Assembly: GCA_963707825.1 (NCBI GenBank)
Contig: CAVPRP010000009.1
Location: 154,602 to 218,601, forward strand
DNA length: 64,000 nucleotides
Direction: 5' to 3'
From: an uncultured Acidobacteriota bacterium
Lineage (GTDB): Bacteria; Acidobacteriota; Vicinamibacteria; Vicinamibacterales; UBA2999
Shown here: positions 2,647-62,798 of the stretch, piece by piece
Layout: each line of letters starts with the position of its first letter
How positions within the stretch are numbered: position 1 is the first letter of the stretch
The notes under the pieces: generated by a model
Told to the model about the DNA's origin: nothing
Databases searched by the model: none
What the model saw: only the letters and a program-made list of their open reading frames with translations
Translations under genes and position numbers: made by a program

Positions 2647-4558
2647 ATGCGCCACATCATGAGCAGCACGGATCGGCAGCTTGGCATGGGCGCCGCAATC
2701 ACGCGGCGCGACTTCCTGAACGGCGTGGCAGTCGGAGTGGGCGGCGCGATGGTTTCCAGCGGCCTGCCCGGAGATCTCGGCGCCCTGCTCGCCCAGGGGG
2801 CTCCCTATCCGCCGGCGCTCACCGGCCTGCGCGGGTCGCACCAGGGCTCGTTCGAGGTGCTGCACGCGCTGCGGGACAGCGCGTTCTGGACCAAGGCCGG
2901 TGCCGCCTCAGGACACGCGGGAAGAGTATGACCTCGTGGTCGTCGGCGCCGGCATCAGCGGCCTTGCCGCGGCGCACTATTTCAAGCAGGCGCGGCCCGA
3001 CGCGCGCATTCTGATCCTCGACAACCACGACGACTTCGGCGGCCACGCCAAGCGCAACGAGTTCTCGCACGAGGGCCGCACCTACATCGGCTACGGCGGC
3101 ACCCAGTCGATCGACAGCCCGCAGCCGTACAGCAAGGTGGCCAAGGACCTGATCACCGAGCTCGGCATCGACGTCGCCCGCTACGCCAAGGTGCTGGACT
3201 CGGGGCTCTACAAGTCGCTCGGCCTCCGCCCCTCGATGTTCTTCAACAAGGAAGCGTTCGGCACCGACCGCCTGGTAGTTGGCGACGTCCGCGACGAGGC
3301 ATTCATCAAGGCCGCGCCGCTCACTCCCGCGGTCGCGCGCGACCTGAAGCGGTTGCAGACCGAATCGTTCGATCCGATGCCCGGTCTGTCGTCGTCGGAG
3401 AAGAAGGCGCGCCTCGCGCGTATCAGCTACACCACCTTTGTCACGACGATGTGGAAGCTCGATCCCGGCGTGCTGTGGCCCTATCAGGCGCGAACGCATG
3501 GCCTGTTCGGCGTCGGCGTGGACGGTGTCCCGGCACAGGACGCGTTCGCGTTGGGCCTGCCTGGCTTCCAGGGCATGGGGCTCGACGACAAGCCGGGCCC
3601 GGGCCAGAACTTCGACTCGATGGGCACCGAGGAAGGGGAGAACTACTACTTCCACTTCCCCGACGGCAACGCCTCGGTCGCGCGGCTGCTGGTGCGTCGT
3701 CTGATCCCCGGCGCCATCCCCGGTTCCACCATGGACGATGTGGTGACGGCGAAGGCGGATTACGGCAAGCTGGACACTGCCGGCTCCGCGGTTCGCATCC
3801 GCCTGAGCGCGCCGGTGCTGCGCGTGCGCCATACCGGACCGGCCACTGGTGATCGTCGCGTGGAGATCGCCTACCAGCAGAACGGCGTGCTGAAGAGCGT
3901 GACCGCGCGCTCGACCGTGCTCGCCTGCTGGCACACGGTGATCCCGGCGCTCTGTCCGGAGCTGCCGGCCGCGCAGAAGACCGCGCTGGACTACGCCATC
4001 AAGGTGCCGCTCGTCTACACCAACGTCTTCATCCGGCAGTGGACGGCCTTCCAGAAGCTCGGCATCCAGCGGGTGTCGATGCCCGGCATGTTTCACACGT
4101 CAGCAAACCTCGACTTCCCGGTCAGCCTCGGCACCTACAAGCACCAGACCGACCCGACGCAGCCCATCGTGCTGCACCTGAGCAAGGCCGCGTGCAAACC
4201 AGGTCTTCCGACGCGCGCGCAGCATCGCGCCGGTCGCGCCGAGTTGTTGTCCACCTCGTTCGAGACCATCGAGCGCGGCATCCGCGACTCACTCGGCCGC
4301 GCGCTCGGCGGCGGCGGGTTCGACCCCGCGCGCGACATCCTCGGCATCACCGTCAACCGCTGGCCGCACGGCTACGCCTACCAGTACAACTCGCTCGAGG
4401 ACGAGTTCTGGGTGAACGGCGGCGAACAGCCCTGCGCCGTCGCCCGCAAGCCTTTCGGGCGCATCGCCATCGCCAATGCCGACGCCGCGGCCTATTCGTA
4501 TACGGATGCGGCGATCGATCACGGCCACCGGGCAGTGGAAGAACTGTTGAAGGCGTAA
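2647..4558 (+). pseudogene. Tat-signal FAD-dependent amine oxidoreductase, spermidine-dehydrogenase (SpdH)-like; one frame change near 2895-2915
   Basis: The N-terminus (ITRRDFLNGVAVG, ...SFEVLHALRD) is in frame 1. The rest (EEYDLVVVGAGISGLAAA, DNHDDFGGHAKRNEF) is in frame 2. Removing one C from GCCGCC joins ...WTKAGA to PQDTREEYD. Confidence 0.7.
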
Positions 4559-4561
4559 GGA

Positions 4562-4667
4562 CCGGCAGACCGGCAACCGGCAGACGGCAGACGGCAGGCC
4601 AGGCCAAGACTCAAGACCCAAGACCCAAGACCCAAGACTCAAGACCGCTAGAGGCAGAAGGGCAGAC
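4562..4667 (+). repeat. Heptanucleotide tandem-repeat mosaic, locus 1 (GGCAGAC-type x4, then [C/T]CAAGAC x6)
   Basis: Direct reading: ccggcagac cggcaac cggcagac ggcagac ... ccaagac tcaagac ccaagac ccaagac ccaagac tcaagac. Confidence 0.9.
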
Positions 4668-4671
4668 ACTG

Positions 4672-6010
4672 GTGGAACCCCCGGCCCGGATTCCCCGCAC
4701 GCTGGGGCTCACCGATCTCGTCCTCCTCGGCACGGTCGCCATCGTCAACGTCAACGTGGTCCCGCCGGTGGGCGGGTTCGGCCGCGCGACGCTTGGCGCT
4801 GTGGCTGCTCGCGTGGCTGGCCTTCTTCGTCCCCGAGGCGATTGCGGTGCTCGCCCTGTCGAAGCGCTATCCCGGCGAGGGCGGGGTCTACCTGTGGGCG
4901 CGCGAGCATTTCGGCGGGCTGCACGGGTTCATCTCCGGCTGGTGCTACTGGACCAACAGCCTGTTCTACGTGCCGGTGCTGCTGGTCTATCTCGCCGGCG
5001 TGCTGGCATTCGCCGGCGGCGATCGCACGGCCGGTCTGGTGGACAATCCCTGGTTCGTCGGCGGCGTCGCCTTCGGCTGGCTGGCACTCATCACCGCGGC
5101 CAACATCCGCGGCATGGGCGTCGGCAAGTGGATCAACAACATCGGCGGCGCGGGCGGCATGGCCACCGTGGTGCTGGTCGCCATCGCCGCCGCGGTCGCG
5201 CGCTGGACCGGCACCGCGACCTCGCCGGTACTGGTGCAGGGCACCGCCTTCGACATGGCCGGCGCGCTCGGCGTGATGTGCTTCGCGTTCATCGGCATCG
5301 AGCTCGCCTCGACGATGTCGGACGAGATCCGGCACCCGGCGCGGGACGTGCCGCGATCGATCGTGATCACCGGCGTGATCGCGCTGGTCGCGTACCTGCT
5401 GGTGGCCGACGCGCTGATCGCGCTGGTGCCTCCGGGCGAGCTCGGCGCCATTCAGGGCGTGATGCAGGCCGTGCAACAGGGCGCTGCTGCCGCCGGCGCC
5501 AGCTGGCTGGTGGCCCCGATTGCGATCGTGATGGCGCTGTCGGTCGGCGGTTCGGCGTCGGCCTGGTTTGCCGGGCCGTCGCGCATTCCGTTCGTCGCCG
5601 GCCTGGATCGCGCGCTGCCGGCCGCGCTGGGGCGGGTGCACCCTCGCTGGGGCTCACCTTACGTGGCGCTGCTGACCTGCGGCGTGATCTCGGCGGCGCT
5701 GACCGCGTTGTCGCTCGCGGGATCGACGGTGGCCGAGGCGTATCAGGTGCTGCTGCGGGCGGCCGTGGTGCTGAACCTGGTGCCGTTCGTCTACGTGTTC
5801 CTGGCCTTGATGACGCTGGATACGGCCCGTGGTTTCGAGCGCGTGGCCGGAGCCGTCGGCGCCGTGGTCACGGCAGCGGGGATCGTCGCGGTGTTCCTGC
5901 CAACCGGTGACGTCGGCAACGTGTGGATCTTCGAGATGAAGATGGCCCTTGGCGTGGGCGTGCCGATCGGCGTCGGGCTGTGGTTGTACTGGCGGGCGCG
6001 GCAGGGGTGA
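4672..6010 (+). pseudogene. APC-family amino acid/polyamine permease; one frame change near 4790
   Basis: The N-terminal segment RTLGLTDLVLLGTVAIVNVNVVPP is in frame 1. The body (ALWLLAWLAFFVPEA..GEGGVYLWAREHFG, multiple TM helices) is in frame 2. One extra G in CTTGG explains the shift. The GTG start at 4672 is tentative. Confidence 0.75.
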
Positions 6011-9705: not shown

Positions 9706-11546
9706 GGGCGCAACCGGCGCGGAAGCCGCCGGCGTCGGCGGCGACTGGCGGGCGACGATCGGCAGCAGCAACCGCGAGGGATGCGCCGCGTCGTGCAGGA
9801 TCGTCTGGGTGGCCGGCACGCCCGCGGGATCCTCGCCGAACACGCCACCGGTATTCAGATTGCGATCGAAGCGCGGAAAGTTGCTGCTCGACACCTCCAG
9901 CCGGATGCGATGCCCGGCGCGGAACAGGTTCGAAGTCGCGCCCAGGTCGATCGTCACCTCGGTCGGCTCGCCCGGCGTCAGCAGCGACGGCGTGGTCTTG
10001 CCGTTGCGATAGCGGGCGCGGAGGATGCCGTCGGCCAGCGCGCGTGCCGTGCCGTCGGGGAACACGTCCACCAGCGTGCCGGTGAAGTCGGTGTCCCGAG
10101 CCGTGGACTGAATCCACAGCGTCAGCGCCAGGGGCCCGGTCACCTCCACGTCTTCCGTCAACGCCGGCGTCTGGTAGACCAGCACGTCCTTGCGCTGTTC
10201 CACCTCGCGCCGATCCATCGGCGTGCGCGAGTAGCCGCCACTGGCGCCGGTCGGCACCGGATCCTTCGGGTCGTAGACGAACTGGTCGGCGGGCTCGCCC
10301 GCCGGCGGCATCGGTTCCAGCCGGCCGTCGCCCGACACCGTCACCGCCCGTCCGGCGCTCCGCAGGTAGAACGGTGTGGTGCGGGCGCGAGCCAACGGCC
10401 ATTCCTGCTCGTCGCGCCACCGGTTCTCGCCCATCACGAACAGGCGGATGGGCGCTGTATCCACCGGCGGCGCGGTCGCCGCCCTTCAACCAGTGGTCGA
10501 ACCAGCCGATCATCGCTTCGTCGGACTCGAAGCCACCGTCGGCGCCGAAGTCGACCTCGCCGATCTTCGTGGACGCGCGGGTCGGGCGCGCGTGGGTCCA
10601 GGGGCCCACCACCAGCCGCTGGTAGCGCCGCGCGGTCTCGTTGGCGGCGTGCTCGCGCAGTCCCGTGAAGTTGCGCAGGGTGCCGGTCAGCAGCGTGTCG
10701 TACCAGCCGGTGAGGTGGAAGGCCGGCACCTCGAAGCGATCGTGCAGGCTCTCGATGTCGCCCGGCGCCCAGTACGCGTCGGCGTCGGGGTGCGACAGCA
10801 TCTGGCGGTAGCCTGGCGCAAAGCGTTCCAGGTCGAACTCGTTGAACGACTTCAGCGGCAGGTGCCACAGCCATGTGGACCGGAGTTGCGCCGACTGGGC
10901 CGGAGCTGAGGCCGATGGGGCCGTCGCGATCGACGGCGGGAGTCAGGACACGCCGGCGGACGTCCATGGCCTGCCCGAGGTTCCAGCCGAGCCCGTCGCT
11001 CAGGTAGAACGCACCGCCCTGGAACACCATGTCGTGACGCCGGCTATAGGACGAGGCGGGAAACAGCGCCACGAGCGCCGGCGGACGCCGGGTGGCGGCC
11101 TCCAACTGAGTGGTGGCGAGATAGCTGCCGCCGAACATCCCCACCTTCCCGTTCACTCCGGGCAGGGCCGCGGCCCACTGCACCGAGTCGTAGCCATCGT
11201 CGGCCTCGTCGTGCGGGACGGCGACCCCGTCGGAGGTATAGCGGCCGCGGGTGTCCTGAACCACGACCACATAGCCACGCGCGGCAATCGCGCTGAACCG
11301 GCGGGCCGCGTCGCGATCGTTCTTCGAATAGGGCGTGCGCTGCAGCAGGGCCGGCCACGAACGGTCCCCAGACGGGCGGTAGACGTCGGCCCGCAGCAGC
11401 ACGCCGTCACGCATGCGACCTGGCACGTTCTTCTCGAGGCGGACGCCGGTCGCCAGGGTCTCCTGACCCGCGCCCCCCGCCGCCAGCCAGCCGGCGGAGG
11501 CCAGCAGCAGGACGACTCCCAGGGAAAGGGTGGCAAACCAGGTCAT
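9706..11546 (-). pseudogene. CocE/NonD-family (X-Pro dipeptidyl-peptidase-like) serine hydrolase; two frame changes (~10895, ~10465) and no stop before the M28 gene
   Basis: Signal peptide MTWFATLSLGVVLLLASAG. Motifs: RTPYSKN, GMFGGSYLA (GxSxG-type nucleophile), HLTGWYD, and the C-terminal beta-sandwich FRAGHRIRLEVSSSNFPRFDRN. The pieces lie in three frames. Confidence 0.75.
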
Positions 11547-11823
11547 CTCTCGGCGGAAGGGATGGGGGGGCATGCGTTTCGGGACGGTAGCCCTCCCATC
11601 GCCCACTGTCAACGACCCACTGGTCCCGGGGATTCAACCCATCACTCCTCCCAATCGCCGACCAGGCGTTCGGAAATGCACGTTGACTCCTGCGACACCC
11701 CGGCCGGATAATTCGCCCATCCGGAAACGGGTCCGTCATACGTGCGTACTGCGTGTGACTGTCCTTGAACGGTGTCGTTGGCGCCAGCGGCTGGCGCTTA
11801 TGTCTTTTCTTGGAGGAAACCCA

Positions 11824-14567
11824 ATGCGGCGTTGCTTAGTTTTTCTATGCACGATCGTCGCGCTCGGAGCCATACCCTGGACCACCTCGGCCCAGCAGAC
11901 GACTGGTAGCATCCGCGGCGTCATCACCGATGAATCGGGCGCCGTCCTGCCCGGTGTCACCGTCACCCTGAAGGGACGCGCCGTCCCCGGCACTCCCACC
12001 ACCGTCAGCAACGAAACCGGCGTCTACCGGTTCCCGAACCTCACACCCGGCACCTACGACATCTCTGCGGAGTTGGCCGGCTTCACGACGACCGCGCAGA
12101 CCGGCATCCCGGTGGCGCTCGGCGGCACGGCCGAAGTCAACGTCCAGATGAAGCTGAGCACCCAGTCCGAGACCATCACGGTGACGGCGGAGTCGCCGGT
12201 GGTGGATGCGACCAGCACCGAAGTGTCCACGAACTACTCGCGTGAGTGGGTCGAGAACGCCCCGGTTCCCCGTTTCTCGTTCTTCGACCTGATCAACGCT
12301 GCACCAGGCGTCAGCGCCGCGACCTCGACGAGCTCGCGGTCGCAGTCGTTCGGGTCGGCGACCAACGAGAACCTCTACCTGATCGACGGCACGGACTTCA
12401 CCGCGCCGCTGAGCGGCGCGGCGTGGCCGTGGCCGAACACCGATGCGATCGAGGAAATCCAGGTGCTGTCGCTGGGCGCGCCCGCCGATTACGGCAACCT
12501 GGGAGGCGCGGTGTTCAACGTGGTGACCCGCCAGGGCAGCAACGCCTTCCATGGCGATGGCAACTTCTACTTCCAGGACCAGAACCTGACCGGTCGGAAC
12601 ACCGACGACGCCATGGACGGTGGCCTGCCCTACAACCGCGACGAGTACAAGGACACCACCTGGCAGCTCGGCGGGCCGGTCGTGCGCGACAAGTTCTGGT
12701 TCTTTGGTTCCTACCAGTACCAGCGCGACTACGCGTCGCAGCCCGGCACCGACCCGACCCAGCCGGCGAAGTTCACCGCGAAGCGCTACTTCTTCAAGTT
12801 GAACTACCAGATCAACCAGGACAACCGGCTGCAGTTCCAGCAGCACGACGACTTCTACCGCATTCCCGGCCGGGCGAGCGCGACCACGGCGCCCAGCACC
12901 ATTTCGGTGGAGAACGGCCACAACCCGTCGCCCGGGTTCCTCTGGTCGTCGGTCCTCAGCCCGACGACGGTGGTCGAGGCCCGTTACTCCGGCTTCTACG
13001 GCGTGGATCACGGCGATCCACTCGACGGTGGCCCACGCGTGGCGCGGCGCTACAACGACCTCGACACCGGCCAGATTACCGGCGGCATCTACTCGTGGTA
13101 CGACGGCAAGAGCCAGAAGACCAGCTTCTCCGGCCGGGTCACCAAGTATGCCGACTCGTTCATGGGCGGCAGCCACGACTTCAAGGTGGGCGTCCAGTAC
13201 AACAGCGGCCTGGGCGAGTACACCTACGGACTGAACGACTACATCTACACCTACGGCTCGACTCCGGCCTACGGCTACACCCAGGTGCCGTACACGCAGG
13301 GCGGCCGCATGAAGGCCATCGGCATCTATGCCGACGACACCTATCAGCTCGGGCGGGCGACCCTGAATCTGGGGCTGCGCTACGACGACAGCAAGGCCTA
13401 CTTCGCGGAGCAGGATATCCTCGATGCGAGCGGCAACCCCACCGGCCAGAAGTCGCGCGCCGTGGACGAGGTCTTCCGGTGGCAGGTGCTGTCGCCCCGC
13501 CTGGGTGTCACCTTCAAGCTGACCGACAGCGGCTCGTCAGCTGGTCAAGGCCCACTACGGCCGCTACTACCGGGGCATCGTGACCGGCGAGTTCGACAAC
13601 ACCACGCCGTCGATCAGCCCGAGGTACACGTTCGACGGCACCTTACAACTCCGCGGGCGTCCCGCAGGGCAAGGAGCTGTTCTCAGACACCTCGCAGCTG
13701 ACCGTGGATCCGGATCTGAAGAACCCCTACACCGACCAGTACATCCTGGCCTGGGAACAGCAGGCTGGCGCGGACGTCGGATTCTCAGTGAGCTACGTCC
13801 ACAAGGAGAGCGAGAGGCAGACCGCGTTCCCCGACATCGGCGGCACTTACCGGCTGGTGCCCTTCACCTCACCGGCGGGCGTCAACATCAGCGAGGTGTA
13901 TCAGCTGACGAGCGGCGCCTCATCGCGCCTGTTCCAGTTGCGGAACGACGACCGGATGCACTCGAAGTACAACGGCGTTGCGTTCGAAGTGAAGAAGCGG
14001 ATGTCACACCGCTGGCAGGCCAACTTCGGCCTCACGCTGTCGAAGTCGGAGGGCCGCCTCGGCTCGAGCTCGGCGCGCTCGACGCCGTTGACCACCCAGA
14101 CCAGCACCGCTGGCATCTTCGGTCAGAATCTGAACGACTTCATCAACAGCGACGGCCGGCTGCAAAGCGATCGCCCAGTCGTCCTGAAAACCCAGTTCGT
14201 CTACCAGATGGGCTGGGGATTGTTGGCCTCGTTCAACTTCCAGAGCCAGAGCGGCAAGCCGATCATCGAAGAGGCCCGCCTCTCGAGCGCCGTCACCGGC
14301 ATCCCCGGCACCAACCGCGCGGTCGCCAATTTCGTGGACGGCGAGCTGCGCACCGACACCTGGACGACCCTGGACGCGCGCCTCGAAAAGGCCTTCAACC
14401 TGGGCGGCTCGAGGGAACTGGCCGCCTTCGGTGACTTCCTGAACCTGTTCAACAGCGACGCCAACGAGAGTGTGCTCGACCGTCGTCCCGGCAACGTGAA
14501 CTACCTCGTGCCATCCCGCTTCATCGCCCCGCGGCGACTGATGCTGGGCGCGAAGATTCGGTTCTAG
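11824..14567 (+). pseudogene. TonB-dependent receptor with N-terminal carboxypeptidase-regulatory-like domain; two frame changes (~13540, ~13645)
   Basis: GGAGGA lies 7 nt before ATG 11824. Signal peptide, then QQTTGSIRGVITDESGAVLPGVTVTL. The C-terminus is ...RLMLGAKIRF (aromatic terminal residue). The frame-2 bridge reads LVKAHYGRYYRGIVTGEFDN. Confidence 0.8.
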
Positions 14568-14571
14568 GACG

Positions 14572-14872
14572 AGAAGGCAAAAGGCAAAAGGCAAAAGGCA
14601 AAAGAACGGCAGACGGCAACCGGCAGTCGGCAGACGTAGAGCCTGAAGCCTGAAGACAGAGACGCCCGGGGTTGCGACATACGCGGCCCCGGGCGATTCT
14701 CTGTACGGAAGGCAAAAAGGAAAAGGCAAAAGGCAGAAGGACCGGCAGCCGGCAGACGGAGGCAGAAGGCACAACGGCGGCCGACAGCTGGCCCTGGCCG
14801 CAAGCCCCAAGACTCAAGACCCAAGACCCAAGACCCAAGACCCAAGCTTCAGCGCAAGCCCCAAGACCTAAG
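14572..14872 (+). repeat. Heptanucleotide tandem-repeat mosaic, locus 2 (two sub-arrays split by a hairpin)
   Basis: AAGGCAA x4, GGCAGAC-type x4, GCCTGAA x2, then a hairpin. After it: AAGGCAA-type x4, CGGCAGC/GGCAGAC, [C/T]CAAGAC x6, and AAGCCCC-type units. Confidence 0.9.
14663..14695. terminator. GC hairpin between convergent genes (possible bidirectional terminator)
   Basis: CGCCCGGGG (14663-14671) pairs with CCCCGGGCG (14687-14695) around a 15-nt loop. It lies between stops at 14567 (+) and 14875 (-). There is no strong T-tract. Confidence 0.45.
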
Positions 14873-14874
14873 CC

Positions 14875-17145
14875 CTACTTGAGCGCCTCCAACTGCTGTC
14901 GTGCGGGCGCGAACTGTGGGTCGATCTCCAGCGCGCGGCGGAAGGCGGTCTCGGCTTCGGCGCGTTTGTTCTGTCGCGCCAGGGCCAGGCCGAGGTTGAA
15001 GGCATACTGCGCGTTCGTGCCGTCGCGCGTGTTGGCTTCACGAAACGCCTGCTCGCCGGCCGCGAGGTCGCCGTTCCCCGCGAGAATCATCCCCAGCGAG
15101 TTCCAGTACGACGCGGTGCCCGGATCGAGCTGCACCGCTTCGCGAAGCAGCCGCGCCGCGTCGGCCGCGCGGCCGAGGTCGCGGTACAGCTCGCCCAGCT
15201 TCACCCGCACCAGTGCATCCTTCGGGGCCAGCTGCGCCACGCGCTCGTAGGCGCGCACGGCGGCGACCGGGTCGTCCATCCGCCGCGCCACGTCGCCTTC
15301 GCGCTCGATCAGCCGCGGGTCATCGGGCGCCACCTTCAAGCCGCGCCGCACCGCCTCGAGCGCCAGGTTCGGCTTGCCATCCGCCAGATGCACTTCGGCC
15401 AGGCCGATGTAGGCGGCGGTGTAGGCCGGCAGCTTCTGCAACGCCCCTTCGTAGTGCGTCGCCGCCTCGCGCCAGCGCTTGAGGCCGACCAGCGCGCGCG
15501 CAGCGTAGTAGTGCGCCTCGAAGCTGTCGATGCCCCTCGCAAACAGCTGCTGGAACCCGGCGTAGCTGGCGGCGAACCGGCCTTCGCGCAGGTTGACCAG
15601 CCCCTCGCGCATCAGCGTGTTGACGATCTGGTACTCCTCGATCTTGTCCTTCGGATCGGCGCCGGACGCACGAGATGCCGCCGGTCCGGACGAACTGACG
15701 TAACCAAGCGCGCCCAGCTTCTCGAGCAGATCGGCGGGGACCGAGGCGGCGGCCGGCCCGGTGTCGCGCAGCAGGGCCTGCTCTTCACGGAGGCGCTGCT
15801 CGATGCCCGATCGATACGCGCGGGCGCGTTGCGGCTCCTTGTCGATCAGGTTCTGCCGCTCGTGGGGGTCCTGTCCCAGGTCGTACAACTCCGGACGCGG
15901 CGCGAGGATGTACTTCCATTGGCCGTCGCGGACCGCGCGCAGGTCGCTCCATCCGTAATGGACCAGCGGCACCAGCGACTCGGCAAACGTCGGCTCCTCG
16001 TCCTGCGGCGTGCCACGTAGCGCCCCGGCCAGCGATCGACCGGACACCTTCGGCGTCTTCGCCGCCAGCCCGAGCAGGTCGAGCACGGTCGGCATGACGT
16101 CAACGTTGCGCGTCACCGCCTTCAGCCTGGTGCCGGGCCTAATCCCGGGCCCGCGCATCAGCAGCGGCACGGCGAGCGTGGACTCGTAGACGAAGAAGCC
16201 GTGCACCGCTTCCTTGTGCTCGTCGAGGCCCTCGCCGTGATCGGACGTGACGATGAGGAGCGTGTCGTCGCGAAGCTTTGCCGACGCCAGGGCCGCGTCG
16301 AGCCGGCCCACCAGTTCGTCGGACCACGCCACTTCCCCGTCGTAGGGACGTCCGGCGTACTTCGTCGCGTATGGCTCCGGCGGTTCGTAGGGATCGTGCG
16401 GATCGTATAGATGGACCCACGCAAACCGCCGGTCCGCACCCGCGGCACCCAGCCACGCCGTCGCCTCCGCCACCGTGGCGTCGCCGCGCTTCTGAATCGT
16501 GTTGAGGAAGCGGGCATCGTCCTCGCCGATGTCGAACTTGTCCGAGTAGTCGGCGAACCCGCGCGCCAGCCCGGACTGCCGCGACAGGACGATCGACGAG
16601 ACGAACGCCGCGGTCTTGAACCCGTTCTGCTGGAGGATCTCCGCCAGCACCGGCACCTTGCCGCCGAGCGGCGGCGAGACGTTGTCACGAATGCCATGCT
16701 CGGCCGGATAGAGCCCGGTGAAGAGCGAAATGTGGGACGGCCGCGTCAGCGGCACGTGCACCGAAGCGTGTTCGGCCATCGCGCCTTCCGAGGCCAGGCG
16801 ATCCAGGTTCGGCGTCGCGACCGTCGTGTTGCCATAGACGCCGAGACGATCGGCCCGCAGCGTGTCGATGGTGACGATCACCACGTGCTTCGGCACGCGA
16901 GCCGCGGCGGGCGGGCCGGACGGCGCCGACGAGCCGCACGCGGCGACGCTCAGGAGGACAGCCACCACCGCGGCCGCAAGCAGGGGGACGCGGCTGGCGG
17001 CTCGGCTTGCGTCTTGAGTCTTGGGTCTTGGGTCTTGGGGCTGTGCCGGCTGCCGGCTGCCGGCTGCCGTTTTGCCTTCTGCCTTGTGCCTTTTGCCTTC
17101 TGTCTTCCGTCTGCCGTCTGCCGCCTGCCGTCTGCCGATACTCAC
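14875..17145 (-). CDS. Sulfatase-fold (alkaline-phosphatase superfamily) + TPR lipoprotein, paralog 1
   Basis: Motifs: IDTLRADRLGVYG, VPLTRPSHISLFTGLYPAEHGIRDN, SDHGEGLDEHKE, lipobox LLSVAAC, and a C-terminal TPR-like region. The only canonical start upstream of the lipobox is GTG 17145 (GTGA overlap with the upstream stop). That start would translate repeat locus 3. The alternative is CTG ~16983. Confidence 0.8.
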   Translation of the reverse strand: MSIGRRQAADGRRKTEGKRHKAEGKTAAGSRQPAQPQDPRPKTQDASRAASRVPLLAAAVVAVLLSVAACGSSAPSGPPAAARVPKHVVIVTIDTLRADRLGVYGNTTVATPNLDRLASEGAMAEHASVHVPLTRPSHISLFTGLYPAEHGIRDNVSPPLGGKVPVLAEILQQNGFKTAAFVSSIVLSRQSGLARGFADYSDKFDIGEDDARFLNTIQKRGDATVAEATAWLGAAGADRRFAWVHLYDPHDPYEPPEPYATKYAGRPYDGEVAWSDELVGRLDAALASAKLRDDTLLIVTSDHGEGLDEHKEAVHGFFVYESTLAVPLLMRGPGIRPGTRLKAVTRNVDVMPTVLDLLGLAAKTPKVSGRSLAGALRGTPQDEEPTFAESLVPLVHYGWSDLRAVRDGQWKYILAPRPELYDLGQDPHERQNLIDKEPQRARAYRSGIEQRLREEQALLRDTGPAAASVPADLLEKLGALGYVSSSGPAASRASGADPKDKIEEYQIVNTLMREGLVNLREGRFAASYAGFQQLFARGIDSFEAHYYAARALVGLKRWREAATHYEGALQKLPAYTAAYIGLAEVHLADGKPNLALEAVRRGLKVAPDDPRLIEREGDVARRMDDPVAAVRAYERVAQLAPKDALVRVKLGELYRDLGRAADAARLLREAVQLDPGTASYWNSLGMILAGNGDLAAGEQAFREANTRDGTNAQYAFNLGLALARQNKRAEAETAFRRALEIDPQFAPARQQLEALK
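17008..17138 (-). repeat. Heptanucleotide tandem-repeat mosaic, locus 3 (inverted relative to locus 2)
   Basis: Plus strand reads GTCTTG[A/G] x4, GGCTGCC x3, TTGCCTT-type x5 and GTCTGCC-type x4. These are the reverse complements of CCAAGAC, GGCAGCC, AAGGCAA and GGCAGAC. Confidence 0.9.
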
Positions 17146-19439
17146 TGCCTCCCCCCAGCCAGCCGTTCGGCGCGCTGCCCGGCCGCGACGTGACGCTGTG
17201 CCTCGGCCTCGCGCCCCAGCCGCGAGTAGACATCGGCCAGCACGTAATGGCCGAGCGGCGCCATCGCGGGGTCTGGCGCGGAGGCGAGTCCCTTCACGGC
17301 GGCCTGTTCGGCCTCTTTCAAATCACCGGCGTCGAGCGCTGCCTTGGCGAGGTACAGGTAACCGGTGCCGAAGTCCGGCTTCTTCTCGACGGCGGCGCGA
17401 TAGTGAGCCAGCGCCTCTCCCGCGCGTCCCGTCTTCGACAGCAGCTTCGCAAGGTTGAACTCCGGCTGGAACAGCTTCGGGCTGCGGGCGATCTCGGCTT
17501 CGTACGCGGCCATCGCGGCCGGCAGGTTTTCGCGGACCTCGTACACCAGGCCGAGATCGTAATGCGCCATGGCCTGGTCGCCCTTGGCCGCAATCGCCTC
17601 GGTCAGCGCCTTCTCCGCCGCATCGAACTGCTTGAGTTCGATGCGCGCTTCGCCCAGCTTCACGAGAAAGGCCGCGCGATCGGCGTCGAGCGTCAGTCCT
17701 TTCTCGAGGAGGGCCGCTGCCTCGGCGAACTGGCCCTTCTCCATCGACAACTCCGCCAGCTGATACAGCGGCTTGGCACCGCGGGGATTCAGCTGCATCA
17801 CCCGTTCGAACCCGGCCCGCGCCTCGTCGTCTTTGCCGGCGGTGCGATAGGCGAGCGCCAGGCTCCACGCCGCGCCCTCGTGCTCGGGATCGACGGCGAG
17901 CGCTCGCTGATAGGCCGCAATCGCGTCCGCCGGACGGCCGGCCTTGGTGTGCATGTTGCCGAGCATGGTGAACGCTTCGATCACTTCCGGATCGGCGGCG
18001 AGCACTTCGCGCACCTTCGCAATGCCGTCATCGAGCTTGCCATCGACGGAATCCTGGGCGGCGCGCTTCAGCAGGTTGTAGAGACCGATCTTGTCCTTGG
18101 GATCGCCGCGCGGCTTGTCGGCCATCGCCGCGCGCGTGACGCCGGAGGCGACGTAGCCAAGCGCGCGCAGTTGCTGCTCGACGGCCGGATCCACCGCGCG
18201 TGGCTGCTGCGGCACCGCCTGCGCCGCGGTCTTGCCGGCCATGTCGCGCAGGCCCCGTTCGAGCGCGTCGGCCATGCGCGGGTTCTCGGCGGAGAGGTCC
18301 TTCAACTCGCCGGGATCGGCCTGGATGTCGTAGAGCTCTCGACGTGGCGCGGCGATGAACTTGAAGCGGCCGTCGCGCACCGCGGTCAATTCGCTCCACC
18401 CGTAGTGATAACGCGGATACCAGGTCTCGCTGAACGCCAGCAGGTCCAGCGGCTCGCCGCGCCCCATCGGCACCAGGCTCGTCCCCTGCACGGCGGCCGG
18501 CACCTCCGCCCCTACGAGATCCAGGATCGTCGGCATCACATCCACGATGCGCACCTGCTCGCGCACCGCGCGCGCCGGGACGTCTGGACCGGCGACGATC
18601 AGCGGAATCCGAACCGCTGCGTCGTAGACGAAAAAGCCGTGCTGCTGCTCGCCGTGCTCGCCCAGCATCTCACCGTGATCGCCGACCACGACGACGATGG
18701 TGGAAGCCAGCCGTCCACTGGCCTCGAGGGACGCCAGCAGGCGGCCGACCTGCGCGTCGGTGGCCGCGACCTCGCCGTCGTAGGCTCCTTGCGCCGTCGC
18801 GGGAAATTGCGAGCGATAGGGTTCCGGCGGTTCGTACGGTCCGTGCGGATCGTAAAGGTGCACCCACGCGAAGAACGGTTGGGTGGTGTCCTTCTCGAGC
18901 CACGCCAGCGCGTGATCGACCACCTCGCGGCCCGGCCGCTGGGCCGCATCGAGGCCGCCGGCCATCTCGAATTTCGACAAGTCGAACTGGTCGAAGTACT
19001 CGCTGAACCCCTGCGCGATGCCCCAGCGCCGGTCCAATACGAACGCGCCGACGAATCCACCGGTCCGGTAGCCGCGCGGCTGCAGCACCTCGGCCAGCGT
19101 GGTCAGCGAGTCGTCCAGGTAGAACGCGCCGTTGTCGCGCACGCCGTGGAAGGCGGGGAACGTGCCCGTCATCAGCGAGCTGTGCGCGGGCAGGGTGAGC
19201 GGCACCACCGTCGCCGCCTGTTCGAAGCGCAGGCCGCGCGCCGCCAGCGCGTCGAGCACCGGCGTCGCCGCCGCCTTGTAGCCGTAGCTGCCGAGTCGAT
19301 CGGCTCGCAGAGTATCGATACTGATGAGGAGGACCGACTTGGCCCCCGAGGCGCGTCCCCCCACCCATCCACGCTGCGCGGCGTACCAGACCGCCGCAAG
19401 CGCCGCCACCATCACGGCGGCGGCAATCACCTTCCGCAT
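17142..19439 (-). CDS. Sulfatase-fold + TPR protein, paralog 2
   Basis: Intact 765-aa ORF. Motifs: ISIDTLRADRLGSYG, VPLTLPAHSSLMTGTFPAFHGVRDNG, GDHGEMLGEHGE, and a long C-terminal TPR region. Confidence 0.85.
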   Translation of the reverse strand: MRKVIAAAVMVAALAAVWYAAQRGWVGGRASGAKSVLLISIDTLRADRLGSYGYKAAATPVLDALAARGLRFEQAATVVPLTLPAHSSLMTGTFPAFHGVRDNGAFYLDDSLTTLAEVLQPRGYRTGGFVGAFVLDRRWGIAQGFSEYFDQFDLSKFEMAGGLDAAQRPGREVVDHALAWLEKDTTQPFFAWVHLYDPHGPYEPPEPYRSQFPATAQGAYDGEVAATDAQVGRLLASLEASGRLASTIVVVVGDHGEMLGEHGEQQHGFFVYDAAVRIPLIVAGPDVPARAVREQVRIVDVMPTILDLVGAEVPAAVQGTSLVPMGRGEPLDLLAFSETWYPRYHYGWSELTAVRDGRFKFIAAPRRELYDIQADPGELKDLSAENPRMADALERGLRDMAGKTAAQAVPQQPRAVDPAVEQQLRALGYVASGVTRAAMADKPRGDPKDKIGLYNLLKRAAQDSVDGKLDDGIAKVREVLAADPEVIEAFTMLGNMHTKAGRPADAIAAYQRALAVDPEHEGAAWSLALAYRTAGKDDEARAGFERVMQLNPRGAKPLYQLAELSMEKGQFAEAAALLEKGLTLDADRAAFLVKLGEARIELKQFDAAEKALTEAIAAKGDQAMAHYDLGLVYEVRENLPAAMAAYEAEIARSPKLFQPEFNLAKLLSKTGRAGEALAHYRAAVEKKPDFGTGYLYLAKAALDAGDLKEAEQAAVKGLASAPDPAMAPLGHYVLADVYSRLGREAEAQRHVAAGQRAERLAGGRQ

Positions 19440-34662: not shown

Positions 34663-35559
34663 ATGTTCCGCGCCAGGATCTTCCCGCTCGTCGGCGTTGC
34701 CGCAGCCGTGGCGCTCTCCGTGTTGCCCGCCGGTGCCGACCAGCGGGGCGGACACCGTGACGGCGGAAGCGGCCAGCCGCAGGCGACTCCCCCACCCGAT
34801 ACCGGACGCCACGCGGTGCCACGGCCCGTTGACGGTGGCCCGGCTGCCGGTGGCGCCGGTCGTGATGTCGTCGTGATGACGCCGGGCGTCGGCGCGCAGC
34901 ACTACCGACCTCCGTATGCCTACCCGGGTCCCGTCTACGGCCCGTACCGCCACCCCGTCTATAACTCGTTCCGCGGCCCGACCTACGGCCCGTACCCCGG
35001 TCCCGTCTACGGTTCGCCGTACCGCTACTCGCATCCGTACTACGCGTTCCGGCCGCACACGACGCTCGGCATCGGGTTCTACGCAGGGTTCGCGGTACCG
35101 TTCCCGAGTTTTGCCTACGGAGGCTTCTCTCCCTACTACGGCGGCGCGTACGGGTATCCCGCGCCCTACCCGGTGCCGTATCCGGTGCCCTATCCCTCGC
35201 CGTACCCGTCGACCGGCTATCCCGCCTACAACTCGTCCGGATATCCCCCGATTGGTAGTCCGGGGCAGGTTCCGCCGCCGGGCGGCATCACGATGGTGCC
35301 GGGGTCCACGGCTCCAGGGACGGTGGCCTACGGAGGCGTCAGCATCGAGGTGACGCCCAGGGACGCGGAGGTGTGGGTCGATGGCGGTTACGCCGGACGC
35401 GCGGACGACTTCGGTCCGCAGGACCGGCCGCTGACGCTGGCGACCGGCGTGCATCGCGTCGAACTGCGCGCGCCGGGCTATCAGCCGCTCGCGTTCGACG
35501 TCAACGTCGCGGCTGGGTATGTGGTGCCGTTCCAGGGAGTCCTGCAACCGCAGCCGTAA
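34663..35559 (+). CDS. Secreted Pro/Tyr-rich protein with a C-terminal PEGA domain
   Basis: Signal peptide MFRARIFPLVGVAAAVALSVLPAGA. Low-complexity P/Y/G region (YPAPYPVPYPVPYPSPYPS). PEGA-like VSIEVTPRDAEVWVDGGYAG...VELRAPGYQP. Confidence 0.7.
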   Translation: MFRARIFPLVGVAAAVALSVLPAGADQRGGHRDGGSGQPQATPPPDTGRHAVPRPVDGGPAAGGAGRDVVVMTPGVGAQHYRPPYAYPGPVYGPYRHPVYNSFRGPTYGPYPGPVYGSPYRYSHPYYAFRPHTTLGIGFYAGFAVPFPSFAYGGFSPYYGGAYGYPAPYPVPYPVPYPSPYPSTGYPAYNSSGYPPIGSPGQVPPPGGITMVPGSTAPGTVAYGGVSIEVTPRDAEVWVDGGYAGRADDFGPQDRPLTLATGVHRVELRAPGYQPLAFDVNVAAGYVVPFQGVLQPQP

Positions 35560-48547: not shown

Positions 48548-50425
48548 TCAGCGCAGCTGCGCGGCGCGCCCCTTGAGCGTCTCGGCCATCGCGCGCATGC
48601 GCGACTGATCGCGCCCGGTGGCAGTCGCCGCGTCGCGCTCGAGCTCACCGGCCAGGGTCACCAGTTCGGCCGCGGCCGGGGCCGCGCCGCGGTCGCTGCT
48701 GCGAATGCGATCGGCGCGGTCCAGCGTCGACGAAATGGCGCTCGCCCGGGCGTCCGGGATCGCCTTGCTGCGCTTCAGCTGATCGAGATAGGCGCGGGCC
48801 ACGACCACCGACGAAGGCCAGGTGACCTTCGGCTGCTGCTGCGAGTTGAACTCCTCCCACCGCACCAGCGCCGCGGCGTCGAGCTCGTTCTGCGACAGGT
48901 ACTGGCTCGGCAGCAGGCGGAAGATGTCGATGCCGCGGGCAATCTCGGCGCCGTAGAGGAAGCCGTTGTAGTAGTAGGTGGACCAGTAGCCGCCCGACAT
49001 CAGGTTGGCAGCGTCCACCGGTCCGCGATCGAAGATACGCGATCTCAACCGGGTTCGCCGAATCGGTGAAGTCGAAGATCGACACGCCGCCCTGGTACCA
49101 CGACTGCACCATGATGTCGCGCCCCGGCACCGGAATCAGCGAGCCGTTGTGCGCGACGCAGTTCTCCTGGTCGGTCTGCGGCGCCGGCATCTTGTAGTAG
49201 CCCTTGAACTGCAGCTTCTTGTCGACGATGTCGAAGATCGCGTCGGCGCCCCAGGTGATGGGATCGGTGGCGCGGCAGCGCGGCCGCGCGCCGCCGCCCC
49301 ACTCGTCGGTGAACACCACCTTGGTGCCGTCGTTGTTGAACGTCGCCGAGTGCCAGTACGCAGAAGCCCTTGTCGACGACGTGGTCGAGCCGCTTCGGGT
49401 TCATCGGGTCGGAGATGTCCATCAGCAGGCCGTTGCCCGAGCAGGCGCCGGCGGCAAGGCCGATGGTCGGGTAGACCGTGATGTCGTGGCACTGGTTGGT
49501 CATGCGCGAGGTCTGCGTGCCCTCGCCGTGGTTGCCGCCCTGCCACAGGCCCGCGAGGTTACCGGTCTTCTCGTCCATGAAGATGCGGGGACGGTTGACG
49601 ATCTTCGCGTTCTGGGGCGCGCCGAGCGGCACCTCGATCACGTCGATGCTGAAGAGCGCGGTGTTCGGATCCTCTTTCGGGTCGAGGCCCGAGCAGCCCT
49701 CGAGCTCCTCGCCCGGACGCACCGAGCTGGTGCCGGACCCATAGACGAACAGGTGCGACGGGTTCTTCGGATCGGGCACCAGCGTGTGGGTGTGCGAGCC
49801 GCGGCACGTCTGCACGGCCGCCACCTGGCGCGGCTTGCGGAGGTCGCTGATGTCGAAGATGCGGACGCCGCGGAAGCGATCCTTGCTGACCGTCTCGGTC
49901 ACGCCCTGCAGGCCGCAGTCGAGGCGCCCGCGCGTCTGTTCCACCGACATGAACAGCAGGTTGCCCCACACCGAGACGTCACCCTGCCCGCCGGGGCAGA
50001 CGATCGAGGTCATCAGGCGCGGTTTGCGGACGTTCTCGACGTCGTAGATGTTGAAGCCGTGATAGTTGCCGACCACCACGTGAGTGCCGAAGAAGGCGAG
50101 GTCGGAGTTCGTGAAGCCCGAGCCGCGCGGCGGCGGAGGGGGCGGCGTGCCTGGCTCCGGCGTGGGCTCGGGGGGCGCGCCCGGCGCGCGCTCGGGCGGC
50201 GTCGGCGACCCGGCCGGGGCTTCCGGATCGAAGAACCCCTCGGGCTTCGGCATGTTCGCCAGCAACTCCATGTTCATGCGCCGCAGTGCCCGCGTCGCGG
50301 AGCCCGGCCTTGAGGCCGATGCGGGGATCCTTGGGGTTCGGCGGCGCCTGCTGGGCGCTCGTCAATCCGACGACCGAGGCCACACCCACACTGATCGCAA
50401 AGATGGTGAAACGGTTGAGCTTCAT
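48548..50425 (-). pseudogene. LVIVD-repeat beta-propeller protein, paralog A; three frame changes (~50280, ~49362, ~49036)
   Basis: AGGAGA RBS and ATG 50425 (MKLNRFTIFAISVGVASVVGLTSAQQ). Collinear with the intact paralog at 57640-59583, for example GGQGDVSVWGNLLFMSVEQTRGR and FKGYYKMPAPQTDQENCVAHNGSLIP. Confidence 0.75.
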
Positions 50426-50467
50426 CGATCGGTCTCCTGAAACGAGTCGGGCGGATTGTACTCTGGT

Positions 50468-50674: not shown

Positions 50675-50675
50675 G

Positions 50676-51335: not shown

Positions 51336-51337
51336 GG

Positions 51338-62125: not shown

Positions 62126-62173
62126 GGGCAAGTCTCCGGATTTGACCCGACAAGAGTACACGAAGGGAGGGGA

Positions 62174-62718: not shown

Positions 62719-62798
62719 CAGCACAGAAATCAACGATAGCCTATCGGCGCATGAGGTGGAGCACTGTATAGTTCTCATCCAGGAGGCGCCTCCCCCCT

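Follow-up and report, generated by a model that had tools for sequence, protein, structure and literature searches.

Intergenic heptanucleotide repeat mosaics in an uncultured Vicinamibacterales bacterium: a known repeat class in a new lineage of the Acidobacteriota

The 64-kb stretch of DNA analysed here (64,000 nt, hereafter the window) belongs to an uncultured bacterium of the Vicinamibacterales (Acidobacteriota) and has a GC content of about 69%. Tandem Repeats Finder places period-7 arrays at five sites of the window, 4560–4646, 14574–14877, 17006–17137, 50468–50675 and 62173–62274 (L1 to L5, respectively), which are the same five heptanucleotide loci that a first-pass annotation of the sequence had listed. 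In a scan of periods 3–12, using a run threshold of at least 23 self-matches out of 28, this threshold was reached by period 7 only (227 windows) and at these five loci only. The best period-7 score observed was 28/28, versus a maximum of 21/28 among 100 sequences simulated from the window with a first-order Markov model; the five period-7 arrays are far beyond chance.

L1 (4560–4667, with the + strand as the T-poor strand) lies between an FAD-oxidoreductase gene, whose stop codon is at 4556–4558, and an amino-acid permease gene starting with GTG at 4672, both assigned by Pfam hits, and is made of five CCGGCAG/ACGGCAG units, six (C/T)CAAGAC units and the pair GGCAGAA GGGCAGA. The same GTG start is found downstream of the L1 site in a relative, L002. 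L2, the main locus, fills a spacer between convergent genes. Its left part, L2a (14574–14655, + strand), begins 6 nt past the stop codon (14565–14567) of a TonB-dependent-receptor-like outer-membrane gene and holds four AAGGCAA, four ACGGCAG-type and two AGCCTGA units. It is followed by a G+C-rich hairpin of non-repeat sequence (14663–14695, strand unassigned), which had been described earlier as unique, a description that stands, and as having a 9-bp stem, which falls short: the hairpin is scored as 14 pairs (12 of them G–C) with a 5-nt loop and the tail ATTCTCTGTA. As modelled, this hairpin resembles an intrinsic terminator, and it appears in the minimum-energy folds of the 3′ UTRs of both flanking genes. 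The right part, L2b, has a first half (14709–14772, + strand) of four AAGGCAA-type units followed by CGGCAGC/GGCAGAC and GGCAGAA-type units, and a second half (14801–14877, + strand) of five CCAAGAC units mixed with CCAAGCC-type units; on the − strand this second half reads as GGGTCTT/GGGGCTT, running from the stop codon (14875–14877) of a sulfatase-TPR gene, D. Counted as repeat copies, L2 contains AAGGCAA x4.4, ACGGCAG-type x4.4 and AGCCTGA x2.3 before the hairpin, and AAGGCAA-type x4.6, CGGCAGC/GGCAGAC, CAAGACC x6.6 and AAGCCCC-type units after it, in agreement with the unit types and counts first described for this locus.

L3 (17006–17138, T-poor strand −) lies between the stop codon of a second sulfatase-TPR gene, E (17142–17144), and the start region of its paralogue D, and contains ACGGCAG x4, AAGGCAx x4, CGGCAGC x3, CCAAGAC x4 and a single CAAGCC. 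L4 (50468–50675, T-poor strand −), between the stop codon of an ACT/DUF5612 gene (50676–50678) and the ATG of the next gene (50425), is built from CCGGxAT x5, GGCAAAA-type x5, CGGCAGA x2, CCGGAGx x2, CCAAGAC x4 and CCAAGCC x7. L5 (62173–62274, G-rich strand +) carries six GACGGCA-type, three GACGGGA and five GTCGGGA units, and separates two − strand genes, a creatininase-family gene with its ATG at 62125 and the gene upstream of it, whose stop codon is at 62304.

In-phase heptamers account for 66% (L1), 98% (L3), 75% (L4) and 48% (L5) of the respective spacers, and for 1.8% of the rest of the window outside the array spacers. At L2 the share is 67% of a 307-bp spacer (14568–14874), so that the first-pass statement that nearly all 300 bp are repeat was too high; likewise, not every unit is exactly 7 nt as had been stated, several register shifts of ±1 to 2 nt being needed in the parse, and three arrays show 8–9% indels in Tandem Repeats Finder. 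Array copy numbers are approximate, since the assembly seems to carry indel errors; several genes of the window look frameshifted. The claim of a strongly T-poor strand is borne out by the T counts at all five loci (L1 5/116, L2 22/316, L3 4/156, L4 15/231, L5 10/126), and so is that of a shared block order, which on the T-poor strand runs AAGGCAA, CGGCAGx, CCAAGAC and CCAAGCC wherever these blocks co-occur. All five loci have unit types, block order and a T-poor strand in common, and they make up a single family of intergenic heptanucleotide arrays. The block order reduces to a simple polarity, G>C and then C>G, which reads the same on both strands. In the in-register parse, neighbouring units differ by 0 or 1 base in 62 of 107 pairs, and the transitions between blocks are stepwise, proceeding by in-register single-base steps.

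Four of the five array spacers separate genes of the same direction, one (L2) is convergent and none is divergent, albeit in a small sample of five loci. The arrays set in 1–6 nt after the upstream stop codon at L1–L4 and about 30 nt after it at L5, and they end at the Shine–Dalgarno region of the next gene; clear starts with Shine–Dalgarno sequences are found downstream of the arrays at L1, L4 and L5. Most of the flanking genes have metabolic roles (an FAD oxidoreductase, a permease, an ACT-domain protein and a creatininase-family member), with D, E and the TonB-like receptor representing envelope proteins. The arrays are non-coding, and the conclusion that they are not translated is supported. 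The T-poor arrays lack stop codons in all frames, and open frames across them therefore carry no information. The start of gene D is ambiguous, as its frame in the window runs through L3 from a GTG at 17145 that overlaps the E stop codon; the L3-crossing frame is also open in relative L001 (from a TTG), continuing into the signal peptide of D. In L002, the stop codon of E shares the frame of D, so that no upstream start of D is possible there, and past the array D has an ATG where the window has its GTG. Translation of L3 as an N-terminal part of D was considered and judged unlikely, as the in-frame reading is not conserved in L002.

Relatives were collected through the sulfatase-TPR gene, giving 22 Acidobacteriota/Vicinamibacterales MAGs assigned by title or synteny, two of which are titled "Bifidobacteriaceae"; a 23rd match is weak (36% identity) and labelled Gammaproteobacteria. 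Alleles of L1, L2, L3 and L4 compared across assemblies confirmed that copy number varies between close relatives, and the arrays are hypervariable, occupying the same sites in relatives with different length and sequence. The clearest series is that of L4, for which four alleles (the window and three others) all adjoin a 100% identical ACT/DUF5612 protein on contigs that share 94–97% nucleotide identity with each other; the block order is common to these alleles, the CGGCAGx block has 2, 8 or 4 copies, and a new CCTAGAA block is found. Two JGI contigs that are 98.6% identical to each other differ at L4 mainly in the last block. At the L1 site of L002 (88% nucleotide identity), the spacer is only 41 nt long and contains single AAGGCAC and CAAGTC proto-units; this unexpanded site, holding proto-units in the same order, argues for growth of L1 in place. 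At L2, L001 and L002 retain the hairpin sequence but differ in the arrays to either side of it: the orthologous L2a blocks have different copy numbers in the two relatives, and the AAGGCAA block is missing in L002. The L3 ortholog in L001 has the same order and a different length. Exact-protein look-ups with the CN-hydrolase (62799–63824) and the FAD oxidoreductase (2900–4558), made for alleles of L5 and L1, returned no record.

Beyond the orthologous sites, period 7 (22 arrays) and period 14 (12 arrays) dominate the periods that are not multiples of 3 in 512 kb of sequence from relatives. A scan by a single heptamer found CCAAGAC x3 in at least 120 taxonomically unlabelled metagenome contigs with a GC content of 36–74%, and in the 120 contigs listed the lengths of perfect CCAAGAC runs fall off roughly geometrically (68, 31, 10, 1, 3...), as expected for slippage dynamics. 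In 703 kb of unit-carrying metagenome contigs, 46 period-7 runs were counted, versus 3–9 for periods 5, 6, 8 and 9.

The orientation of the arrays relative to the flanking genes follows a rule. At all five loci, the strand with the G-tracts is sense where the array directly follows a stop codon and antisense where it directly precedes a start codon, with the exception of the stop side of L5, which is C-rich in the sense direction 30 nt past the stop codon; the same rule was seen at about 10 independent loci in relatives. Array gene context was assigned by distances to ORF boundaries, fixed 240-nt flank frames having left too many flanks unresolved. Within the 60 nt after stop codons, G exceeds C in 12 cases and C exceeds G in 4 where an array is present, versus 130 and 136 where it is absent; metagenome CCAAGAC arrays no more than 15 nt from a stop codon are G-rich in the sense direction in 19 cases and C-rich in 5, and the nearer gene lies on the 5′ side of the G-strand in 23 cases versus 9, all of these being counts from small samples with crude GC3-based gene calls and partly orthologous, non-independent loci. 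Two simpler accounts of the polarity were rejected: a tie to the replication strand, as L2 (+) and L3 (−) have opposite polarity only 2 kb apart, and a T-poor strand that is always sense, as L5 and the relatives' arrays downstream of D are antisense.

The orientation of the arrays leaves the mRNA ahead of start codons C/A-rich and, by prediction, weakly folded. The folding energy ahead of starts in mRNA sense is −0.22 to −0.29 kcal/mol/nt, compared with −0.41 ± 0.07 for the window background and −0.29 to −0.46 kcal/mol/nt for the opposite strand, whereas the G/U-rich strand is predicted to fold into G–U hairpins. However, low structure follows automatically from a T-poor, C/A-rich composition, so that weak folding may have come about as a side effect and not through selection. 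A long hairpin pairing the G-rich half with the C-rich half was discarded, as the two halves lack complementarity and the predicted folding is weak.

Taken as a whole, the arrays are probably hypervariable, microsatellite-like heptanucleotide mosaics that originate by slippage and that may persist depending on their orientation and act at the level of the transcript. The pattern strongly supports amplification and loss of a 7-nt unit through strand slippage, with point mutations yielding variant units which are in turn amplified, leaving blocks joined by single-base steps. Series of this kind can be read in the window, e.g., ACGGCAG > ACGGAAG > ACAGAAG > GCAAAAG, GACGGCA > GACGGGA > GTCGGGA and CCAAGAC > CCAAGCC, and the differences of mostly 0–1 base between neighbours fit slippage combined with point mutation in place. 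Single-base, in-register steps link one block to the next, and no dispersed composite element is required to account for the common order. The arrays that persist would be those oriented to suit the flanking genes. A mosaic that is G>C first and C>G second on either strand makes the RNA just after a stop codon G-rich, and this GGGUCUU/GGGGCUU RNA could fold via G–U pairs or G-tracts; immediately before a start codon, the RNA would be C/A-rich, almost free of start and stop codons and weakly folded. The arrays may act as length-variable, structure-poor leaders or intercistronic spacers together with foldable 3′ tails, with no on/off switch, and their effect is most likely on the transcript.

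A stronger version, which we consider quite unlikely, would make the mosaics a functional and evolvable punctuation of gene boundaries in Vicinamibacterales, with a G-rich half at the end of the upstream gene and a C/A-rich half at the start of the downstream one; the halves would set 3′-end structure or termination and the access of ribosomes or Rho, and slippage-tuned length would act as a rheostat of expression ratios within populations. The same few units (GGGGCTT, GGGAGTC) are reused at unlinked loci and in distant relatives, a reuse that purely local slippage does not explain; if the punctuation reading were true, this recurrence would reflect selection for the sequences rather than a shared mutation bias. 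A role as G-quadruplexes (G4s), in which the GGGNNNN blocks (GGGTCTT, GGGGCTT, GGGAGTC/GGGAGAC) would form DNA or RNA G4s that modulate transcription, termination or translation, is unlikely as well. It can draw on a motif scan in which four of the six canonical G4 motifs of the 64-kb window fall inside arrays, one in L2b (14820–14843, − strand), two in L4 (50481–50512 and 50526–50557, + strand) and one in L5 (62219–62270, + strand, antisense to both genes), on an array placement that matches the rule published for G4 heptamers (antisense up to about 50 nt upstream of an ORF, or sense after a stop codon), and on ViennaRNA, which with G-quadruplexes switched on places a G4 on the G-rich (+) strand of L4 (−61.5 vs. 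−50.5 kcal/mol). However, L1 and L3 have three consecutive G3 tracts only and no G4 motif, about half of the repeat content (AAGGCAA, CGGCAGA and CCGGATC blocks) has no G3 tracts, and L5 and the 3′ UTR of D fold as ordinary hairpins even with G4 allowed. Moreover, no preference for four units is seen, the run lengths decaying geometrically with no peak at four and the G-tract counts ranging from 3 to 11; the G-rich strand is the template rather than the mRNA at four of the five loci; and Rehm et al. themselves were unable to pin down a regulatory role (PMC4692102). That the units load an RNA-binding factor is decidedly improbable: CCAAGAC/CCAAGCC would serve as Rho-utilisation (rut) sites, or the heptads would bind S1, a cold-shock or a CsrA-like protein, with array length tuning downstream polarity or translation. 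Such loading agrees with the 40–105 nt of C>G, weakly folded RNA that lie in mRNA sense directly before the next start at L1, L3, L4 and L5, and similar ideas have been published for heptamers just upstream of starts (PMC4679880) and, as translational coupling or transcript stability, for the short tandemly repeated repetitive (STRR) sequences of cyanobacteria (PMC2670836). Its basis, however, is purely compositional, with no covariation or conserved motif beyond the unit itself, these units are also found after stop codons in reverse orientation, and the fast turnover of unit sequences among relatives is hard to reconcile with a specific recognition site.

Contingency loci, in which copy number toggles a flanking gene through a frameshift (e.g., L3 extending lipoprotein D) or through promoter spacing, had been among the first-pass candidates as slipped-strand loci; they fit poorly with arrays that lie after stops and before Shine–Dalgarno sequences, out of reading frames and beside mostly metabolic genes, and this reading is very improbable. 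The copy-number differences between close relatives, the frame-shifting length of a 7-nt unit, the frame open from GTG 17145 through L3 to the D signal peptide (also in L001), and the envelope location of D, E and the TonB-like receptor all speak for it. However, such open frames are uninformative in T-poor arrays without stops in any frame, in L002 the E stop lies in the frame of D and the ATG of D after the array, and at L1, L4 and L5 starts with Shine–Dalgarno sequences lie downstream of the arrays; no array occupies a divergent, promoter-bearing spacer, the T-poor strand contains no −10-like sequence, and no promoter-like sites were found in 14300–17400. It is extremely improbable that the arrays arose as an artefact of assembly or are five copies of a dispersed mobile or composite element of MITE/REP-like type, even though the assembly seems to hold indel errors and the five loci have unit types and order in common. 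Assemblies made independently in different projects and with different assemblers, short JGI and SPAdes NODE contigs among them, carry arrays of the same unit family at orthologous positions, which argues that the arrays are not artefacts. Against an element, there are no terminal inverted repeats, conserved non-repeat flanks or target duplications, the array ends lie just after the stop codon (at 1–6 nt, or about 30 nt at L5) and at the Shine–Dalgarno region, and the unexpanded L1 site of L002 already has proto-units in the same order. A search of Rfam at gathering thresholds gave nothing at the arrays, and a megablast search of a plasmid database with 13000–17500 as the query gave no match. 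The arrays are direct and head-to-tail, without inverted ends or unique spacers, and REP, MITE and CRISPR-type repeats were set aside accordingly; the conclusion that the arrays are not mobile elements is supported. Slippage in place with orientation-dependent persistence is the reading retained here.

The belief voiced in the first-pass annotation that such arrays are undescribed in GC-rich non-cyanobacterial genomes was wrong, as GC-rich Xanthomonas has them (PMC4692102). Over-represented intergenic heptameric repeats have been reported with the unit GGGAATC in Xanthomonas and GGGGA(C/T)T in Nostoc PCC 7120, with G4 formation proposed for both (Rehm et al. 2015, PMC4692102), and an excess of heptamer simple-sequence repeats in many bacteria was described by Mrazek, Guo and Shah in 2007, as cited in that paper. 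All four characters of the intergenic heptameric simple-sequence-repeat class (Mrazek 2007; Rehm 2015) are found in the window arrays. Like the Xanthomonas and Nostoc heptamers, they are head-to-tail repeats of 7 nt with this period over-represented (in the window and in the 512 kb of relatives), are strongly intergenic, with most of them separating same-direction or convergent ORFs and few in divergent spacers, have the G-rich strand in sense right after a stop codon and in antisense up to about 50 nt before a start, are kept at their sites between relatives while length and sequence vary extensively, and are flanked by genes from all functional classes; Xanthomonas is likewise GC-rich. They differ in belonging to the Acidobacteriota (Vicinamibacterales), in their unit sequences, in combining several unit types in polar mosaics of which about half has no G3 tracts, and in showing no four-unit preference, with a G4 motif in some blocks only. 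The window units (GGGTCTT, GGGGCTT, GGGAGTC/GGGAGAC, and AAGGCAA, CGGCAGA and CCGGATC without G-tracts) do not fit the GGGAATC or GGGGA(C/T)T consensus, the nearest being GGGATCC in L4.

The STRR units of cyanobacteria are CCCCAGT, TTGGTCA and CAACAGT; the window units differ from this consensus, and the host is an acidobacterium, not a low-GC organism. STRR are usually described as runs of a single unit, whereas the window arrays are ordered mosaics. Like the window arrays, the STRR of filamentous, heterocystous cyanobacteria consist of 7-bp units in tandem that lie between genes, also within operons, and transcript stability or translational coupling has been suggested for them (PMC2670836). 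Calothrix heptanucleotides are also on record as cyanobacterial repeats. TAACTGA direct repeats are known from marine Beggiatoaceae, some Cyanobacteria and some Bacteroidetes (MacGregor 2015, PMC4679880); they resemble the window arrays in being heptamers, mostly intergenic and a few nt before starts, and a post-transcriptional role has been proposed for them (PMC4679880), with binding by an RNA-binding protein among the suggestions. However, TAACTGA is a single AT-rich unit, usually in 2–6 copies, with related heptamers rarely repeated (PMC4679880), whereas the window arrays have many GC-rich unit variants, are longer and also follow stop codons. The contingency loci of Haemophilus, Neisseria and similar host-adapted bacteria are short tandem repeats too, changing copy number by slippage, but they switch the expression of surface or restriction-modification genes from positions within the ORF or between promoter elements, in contrast to arrays between a stop codon and the next Shine–Dalgarno sequence, outside reading frames and near metabolic genes. 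A 2025 survey of short tandem repeats across the tree of life does not mention heptamers or Acidobacteria, and a literature search gave no paper pairing Vicinamibacter with tandem repeats.

The arrays are a known repeat class in a new lineage, a real but fairly ordinary feature. In practical terms, array sites are places where assemblies of close strains will disagree, and they might be used to track strains at high resolution in soil metagenomes; as the arrays have no stop codons on either strand, mechanical ORFs and gene callers may cross them and misplace starts in these MAGs. For the biology of the group, the finding extends the intergenic heptamer repeat class known from Xanthomonas, Nostoc and the STRR to abundant uncultured soil Acidobacteriota, and the recurrence of the published placement rule in an unrelated phylum with unrelated units points to a constraint of a general kind and not to a peculiarity of one lineage.

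Tandem Repeats Finder places period-7 arrays in five gene spacers of the window, at 4560-4646 (L1), 14574-14877 (L2), 17006-17137 (L3), 50468-50675 (L4) and 62173-62274 (L5). A scan of periods 3-12 in 28-nt windows (threshold of at least 23 self-matches) gave runs above threshold for period 7 only, in 227 windows, all inside these same five loci, which are those of the first-pass annotation. The best period-7 score is 28/28, whereas 100 sequences simulated from the window with a first-order Markov model reached 21/28 at most. Arrays of the same family, built of GGGGCTT, GGGACTT, GGGTCTT, GGGAGTC, CGGCAGx and AAGGCAx units, occur at orthologous sites in independently assembled genomes and metagenomes, which rules out an assembly artefact. 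The repeat family is genuine and statistically unambiguous. The unit types and counts at the main locus, L2, were recovered as described earlier, and so were its hairpin site (14663-14695), the T-poor character of one strand and the order of the blocks. However, the hairpin has 14 pairs rather than 9, part of the units show a displacement of 1-2 nt, and in-phase heptamers make up 67% of the 307-bp convergent spacer rather than nearly all of it. The corresponding coverage at L1, L3, L4 and L5 is 66%, 98%, 75% and 48%, against 1.8% in the rest of the window.

Gene context was called from Pfam hits and GC3 phase. L1 lies between the stop of a FAD-oxidoreductase (4558) and the GTG of an amino-acid permease (4672), both on the + strand, and L2 between the convergent stops of a TonB-like outer-membrane gene (14567) and the sulfatase-TPR gene D (14875). 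The other three lie between − strand genes of the same direction, i.e., L3 between the start region of D and the stop of the sulfatase-TPR gene E (17142), L4 between the ATG of the next gene (50425) and the stop of an ACT/DUF5612 gene (50676), and L5 between a creatininase-family ATG (62125) and the stop of a − strand gene (62304). None of the five arrays separates a divergent gene pair. The arrays begin 1-6 nt past the upstream stop codon at L1-L4 and ~30 nt past it at L5, and their ends reach the Shine-Dalgarno region of the following gene. Among the five loci, a terminator-like hairpin is present at L2 only, and an Rfam search gave no match at any of the arrays.

D (14875-17145) and E (17142-19439) are two tandem paralogous sulfatase + TPR genes on the − strand. 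The signal sequence of D (…LLSVAAC) is lipoprotein-like, and the gene has no convincing start codon, the options being GTG GTG at ~16947 (with a signal peptide of only 10 residues), CTG, or the upstream GTG at 17145. Segments 48552-50126 and 57852-59216 are paralogous (~81-83% identical, from secondary BLAST matches through the related contig L144), so the uncharacterized protein encoded downstream of L4 has a second copy ~9 kb away; TRF finds the mini-repeat TGTCGAAGA at both 49220 and 58314. Elsewhere, a full-length c-di-AMP riboswitch (RF00379, 43643-43778, + strand, 76 bits where the gathering score is 38) immediately precedes an ORF; the L144 ortholog of this ORF (15744-17519) has K_trans/Kup potassium-transporter domains, the expected kind of target for such a riboswitch. 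Region 34930-35208 has repeats with periods of 24 and 12 nt (consensus CCCGTCTACGGCCCGTACCGCGGC and TATCCGGTGCCC), which may encode a repetitive protein segment, since both periods are multiples of three.

The array strand that carries G-runs such as GGGTCTT and GGGGCTT is oriented with its 5′ end towards the nearest gene, in the window and in relatives. This G-tract strand is sense immediately past the stop codon, at 0-62 nt, in L2b (one of the two L2 parts flanking the hairpin) and in most arrays of relatives, and antisense just upstream of the start codon at L1, L3, L4 and L5; L5 departs from this rule on its stop-codon side. In the 60 nt past stop codons, G exceeds C in 12 cases and C exceeds G in 4 where an array is present, compared with 130 and 136 where it is absent. 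Among the matches listed, the metagenome CCAAGAC arrays that have a stop codon no more than 15 nt away are G-rich sense in 19 cases vs. C-rich sense in 5, and the nearer gene lies on the 5′ side of the G-strand in 23 and opposite in 9. The shared block order noted in the first-pass annotation restates this rule; an order of AAGGCAA/CGGCAGA (G>C) before CCAAGAC/CCAAGCC (C>G) is G-rich then C-rich whichever strand is read. Two simpler rules were rejected, namely that the T-poor strand is always sense (it is antisense at L5 and at arrays downstream of D in relatives) and that replication direction sets polarity (L2 and L3 are opposite yet 2 kb apart).

The sulfatase-TPR gene (14875-16986, − strand) led to 23 loci, 22 of which belong to close relatives (best 96% amino-acid identity), mostly labelled Acidobacteriota or Vicinamibacterales MAGs and in two cases 'Bifidobacteriaceae'; the 23rd match is weak (36% identity, labelled Gammaproteobacteria). 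At the nucleotide level, the window is ~93-94.6% identical to contig_7961 (MAG MFD03066.bin.2.161) and 88% to a second MAG (L002). In L002, the L1 site is an unexpanded 41-nt spacer in which the proto-units AAGGCAC and CAAGTC each stand once, ordered as in the array, which indicates that the arrays grew in place. A mobile element was rejected on this unexpanded site and on the lack of inverted ends and conserved non-repeat flanks at the arrays. In the distant relatives L003, L009, L011 and L017, 9-10-nt GCAGAT-type tandem repeats replace L3 upstream of the sulfatase-TPR gene. Downstream of it, direct CACGAAG and inverted CTTCGTG copies, which might base-pair to form a long, imperfect hairpin, flank a GGGACTT/GGGGCTT array; in L018, both sets are there and the array is absent.

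Turnover is most visible at L4, where the adjacent ACT/DUF5612 protein is 100% identical on contig_7961 and two JGI contigs. The four L4 alleles share a block order (CCGGxAT, GGCAAAA, CGGCAGx, a variable block, CCAAGxC) and vary in copy number (e.g., 2, 8 or 4 copies of CGGCAGx); a CCTAGAA block is present in three of the four, the window allele lacking it. The JGI contigs are 97% identical to contig_7961 and 98.6% to each other, with differences mostly in the last L4 block. At L2, the hairpin is kept in the window, L001 and L002, whereas the arrays on both flanks differ: L002 has no AAGGCAA block, and L001 has GGGAGTC-complement units in place of AAGGCAA/CGGCAGA on one side. An in-register parse finds neighbouring units 0 or 1 base apart in 62 of 107 cases and blocks linked stepwise (ACGGCAG > ACGGAAG > ACAGAAG > GCAAAAG; GACGGCA > GACGGGA > GTCGGGA; CGGGATC > ... 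> CGATGGC > AGATGGC > AAAAGGC). The pattern is a signature of slippage combined with point mutation, from which we infer that the 7-nt arrays would arise by these two processes; this mechanism of origin is well supported.

Three tandem copies of CCAAGAC were found in at least 120 metagenome contigs (36-74% GC). Most arrays among the matches listed are single-unit, so the multi-unit mosaic looks lineage-specific, while the CCAAGAC unit itself does not. Perfect CCAAGAC run lengths among the matches listed (68, 31, 10, 1, 3...) decay roughly geometrically. Further perfect tandem runs of at least 3 copies on the listed contigs number 46 for period 7 vs. 3-9 for periods 5, 6, 8 and 9, and periods 7 and 14 dominate among non-multiples of 3 in 512 kb of Vicinamibacterales sequence.

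Several genes appear frameshifted, so the assembly looks indel-prone and array copy numbers are approximate. The TonB-like receptor (11530-14567) is broken into two pieces (11530-13701 and 13704-14567), the permease starting at GTG 4672 carries on in a different frame (~4672-4800), the reading frame of the gene from ATG 50425 shifts near 50280, the Pfam match of the creatininase gene (61115-62125) is truncated at 133/238, and GC3 phase switches near 62430 (region 62304-62973). Taken together, the frameshifts suggest that a long-read MAG carries indel errors here, and not pseudogenes. Mechanical ORFs, 96-377 aa long, cross the arrays at 14004-14810 (−), 14672-15250 (+), 49979-50728 (−), 50286-51419 (+) and 50456-50746 (+), because the T-poor/A-poor repeats have no stop codons in any of the six frames. 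T-poor arrays also lack start codons. In annotations of these genomes, stop-free arrays are thus likely to give rise to false genes or to gene starts placed too far upstream.

The first-pass annotation knew of no heptamer arrays in GC-rich non-cyanobacterial genomes; however, intergenic heptameric repeats are known from GC-rich Xanthomonas as well as Nostoc (Rehm et al. 2015, PMC4692102), with the same ORF-context bias, placement rule and between-species variability, and were assigned no function there. As cited in that paper, Mrazek et al. 2007 reported that heptamers are over-abundant in many bacteria and put forward polymerase slippage as a hypothesis. Cyanobacterial STRR and TAACTGA repeats are further relatives. 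The present arrays differ in host phylum, in unit sequences and in having several unit types in ordered mosaics, and no description from Acidobacteria or Vicinamibacterales was found in the literature. They are a lineage-level newcomer to a known class.

Regulation through G-quadruplexes (G4) formed by G-tract units has partial support, in that four of the six G4 motifs of the window lie inside arrays and array placement fits the published rule (PMC4692102); against it, L1 and L3 contain no such motif, G3 tracts are missing from about half of the units, and the arrays show no preference for four units. Phase variation at contingency loci, a candidate of the first-pass annotation, is unlikely, as the arrays lie outside ORFs, most of their neighbours are metabolic genes, and L002 does not keep the in-frame reading of L3, its D gene starting at an ATG past the array. 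The array composition is compatible with loading of Rho or another protein, although nothing supports it specifically.

A role at the transcript level is plausible from predicted folding. Arrays that precede a start codon have folding energies of −0.22 to −0.29 kcal/mol/nt in the mRNA sense, compared with −0.41 ± 0.07 for the window background and −0.29 to −0.46 for the complementary strand of the arrays. The G/U-rich strand is predicted to form G-U-paired hairpins, to which L4 adds a predicted four-stranded G4. The arrays may thus persist as leaders and intercistronic spacers that vary in length and have little structure, and as 3′ tails able to fold.
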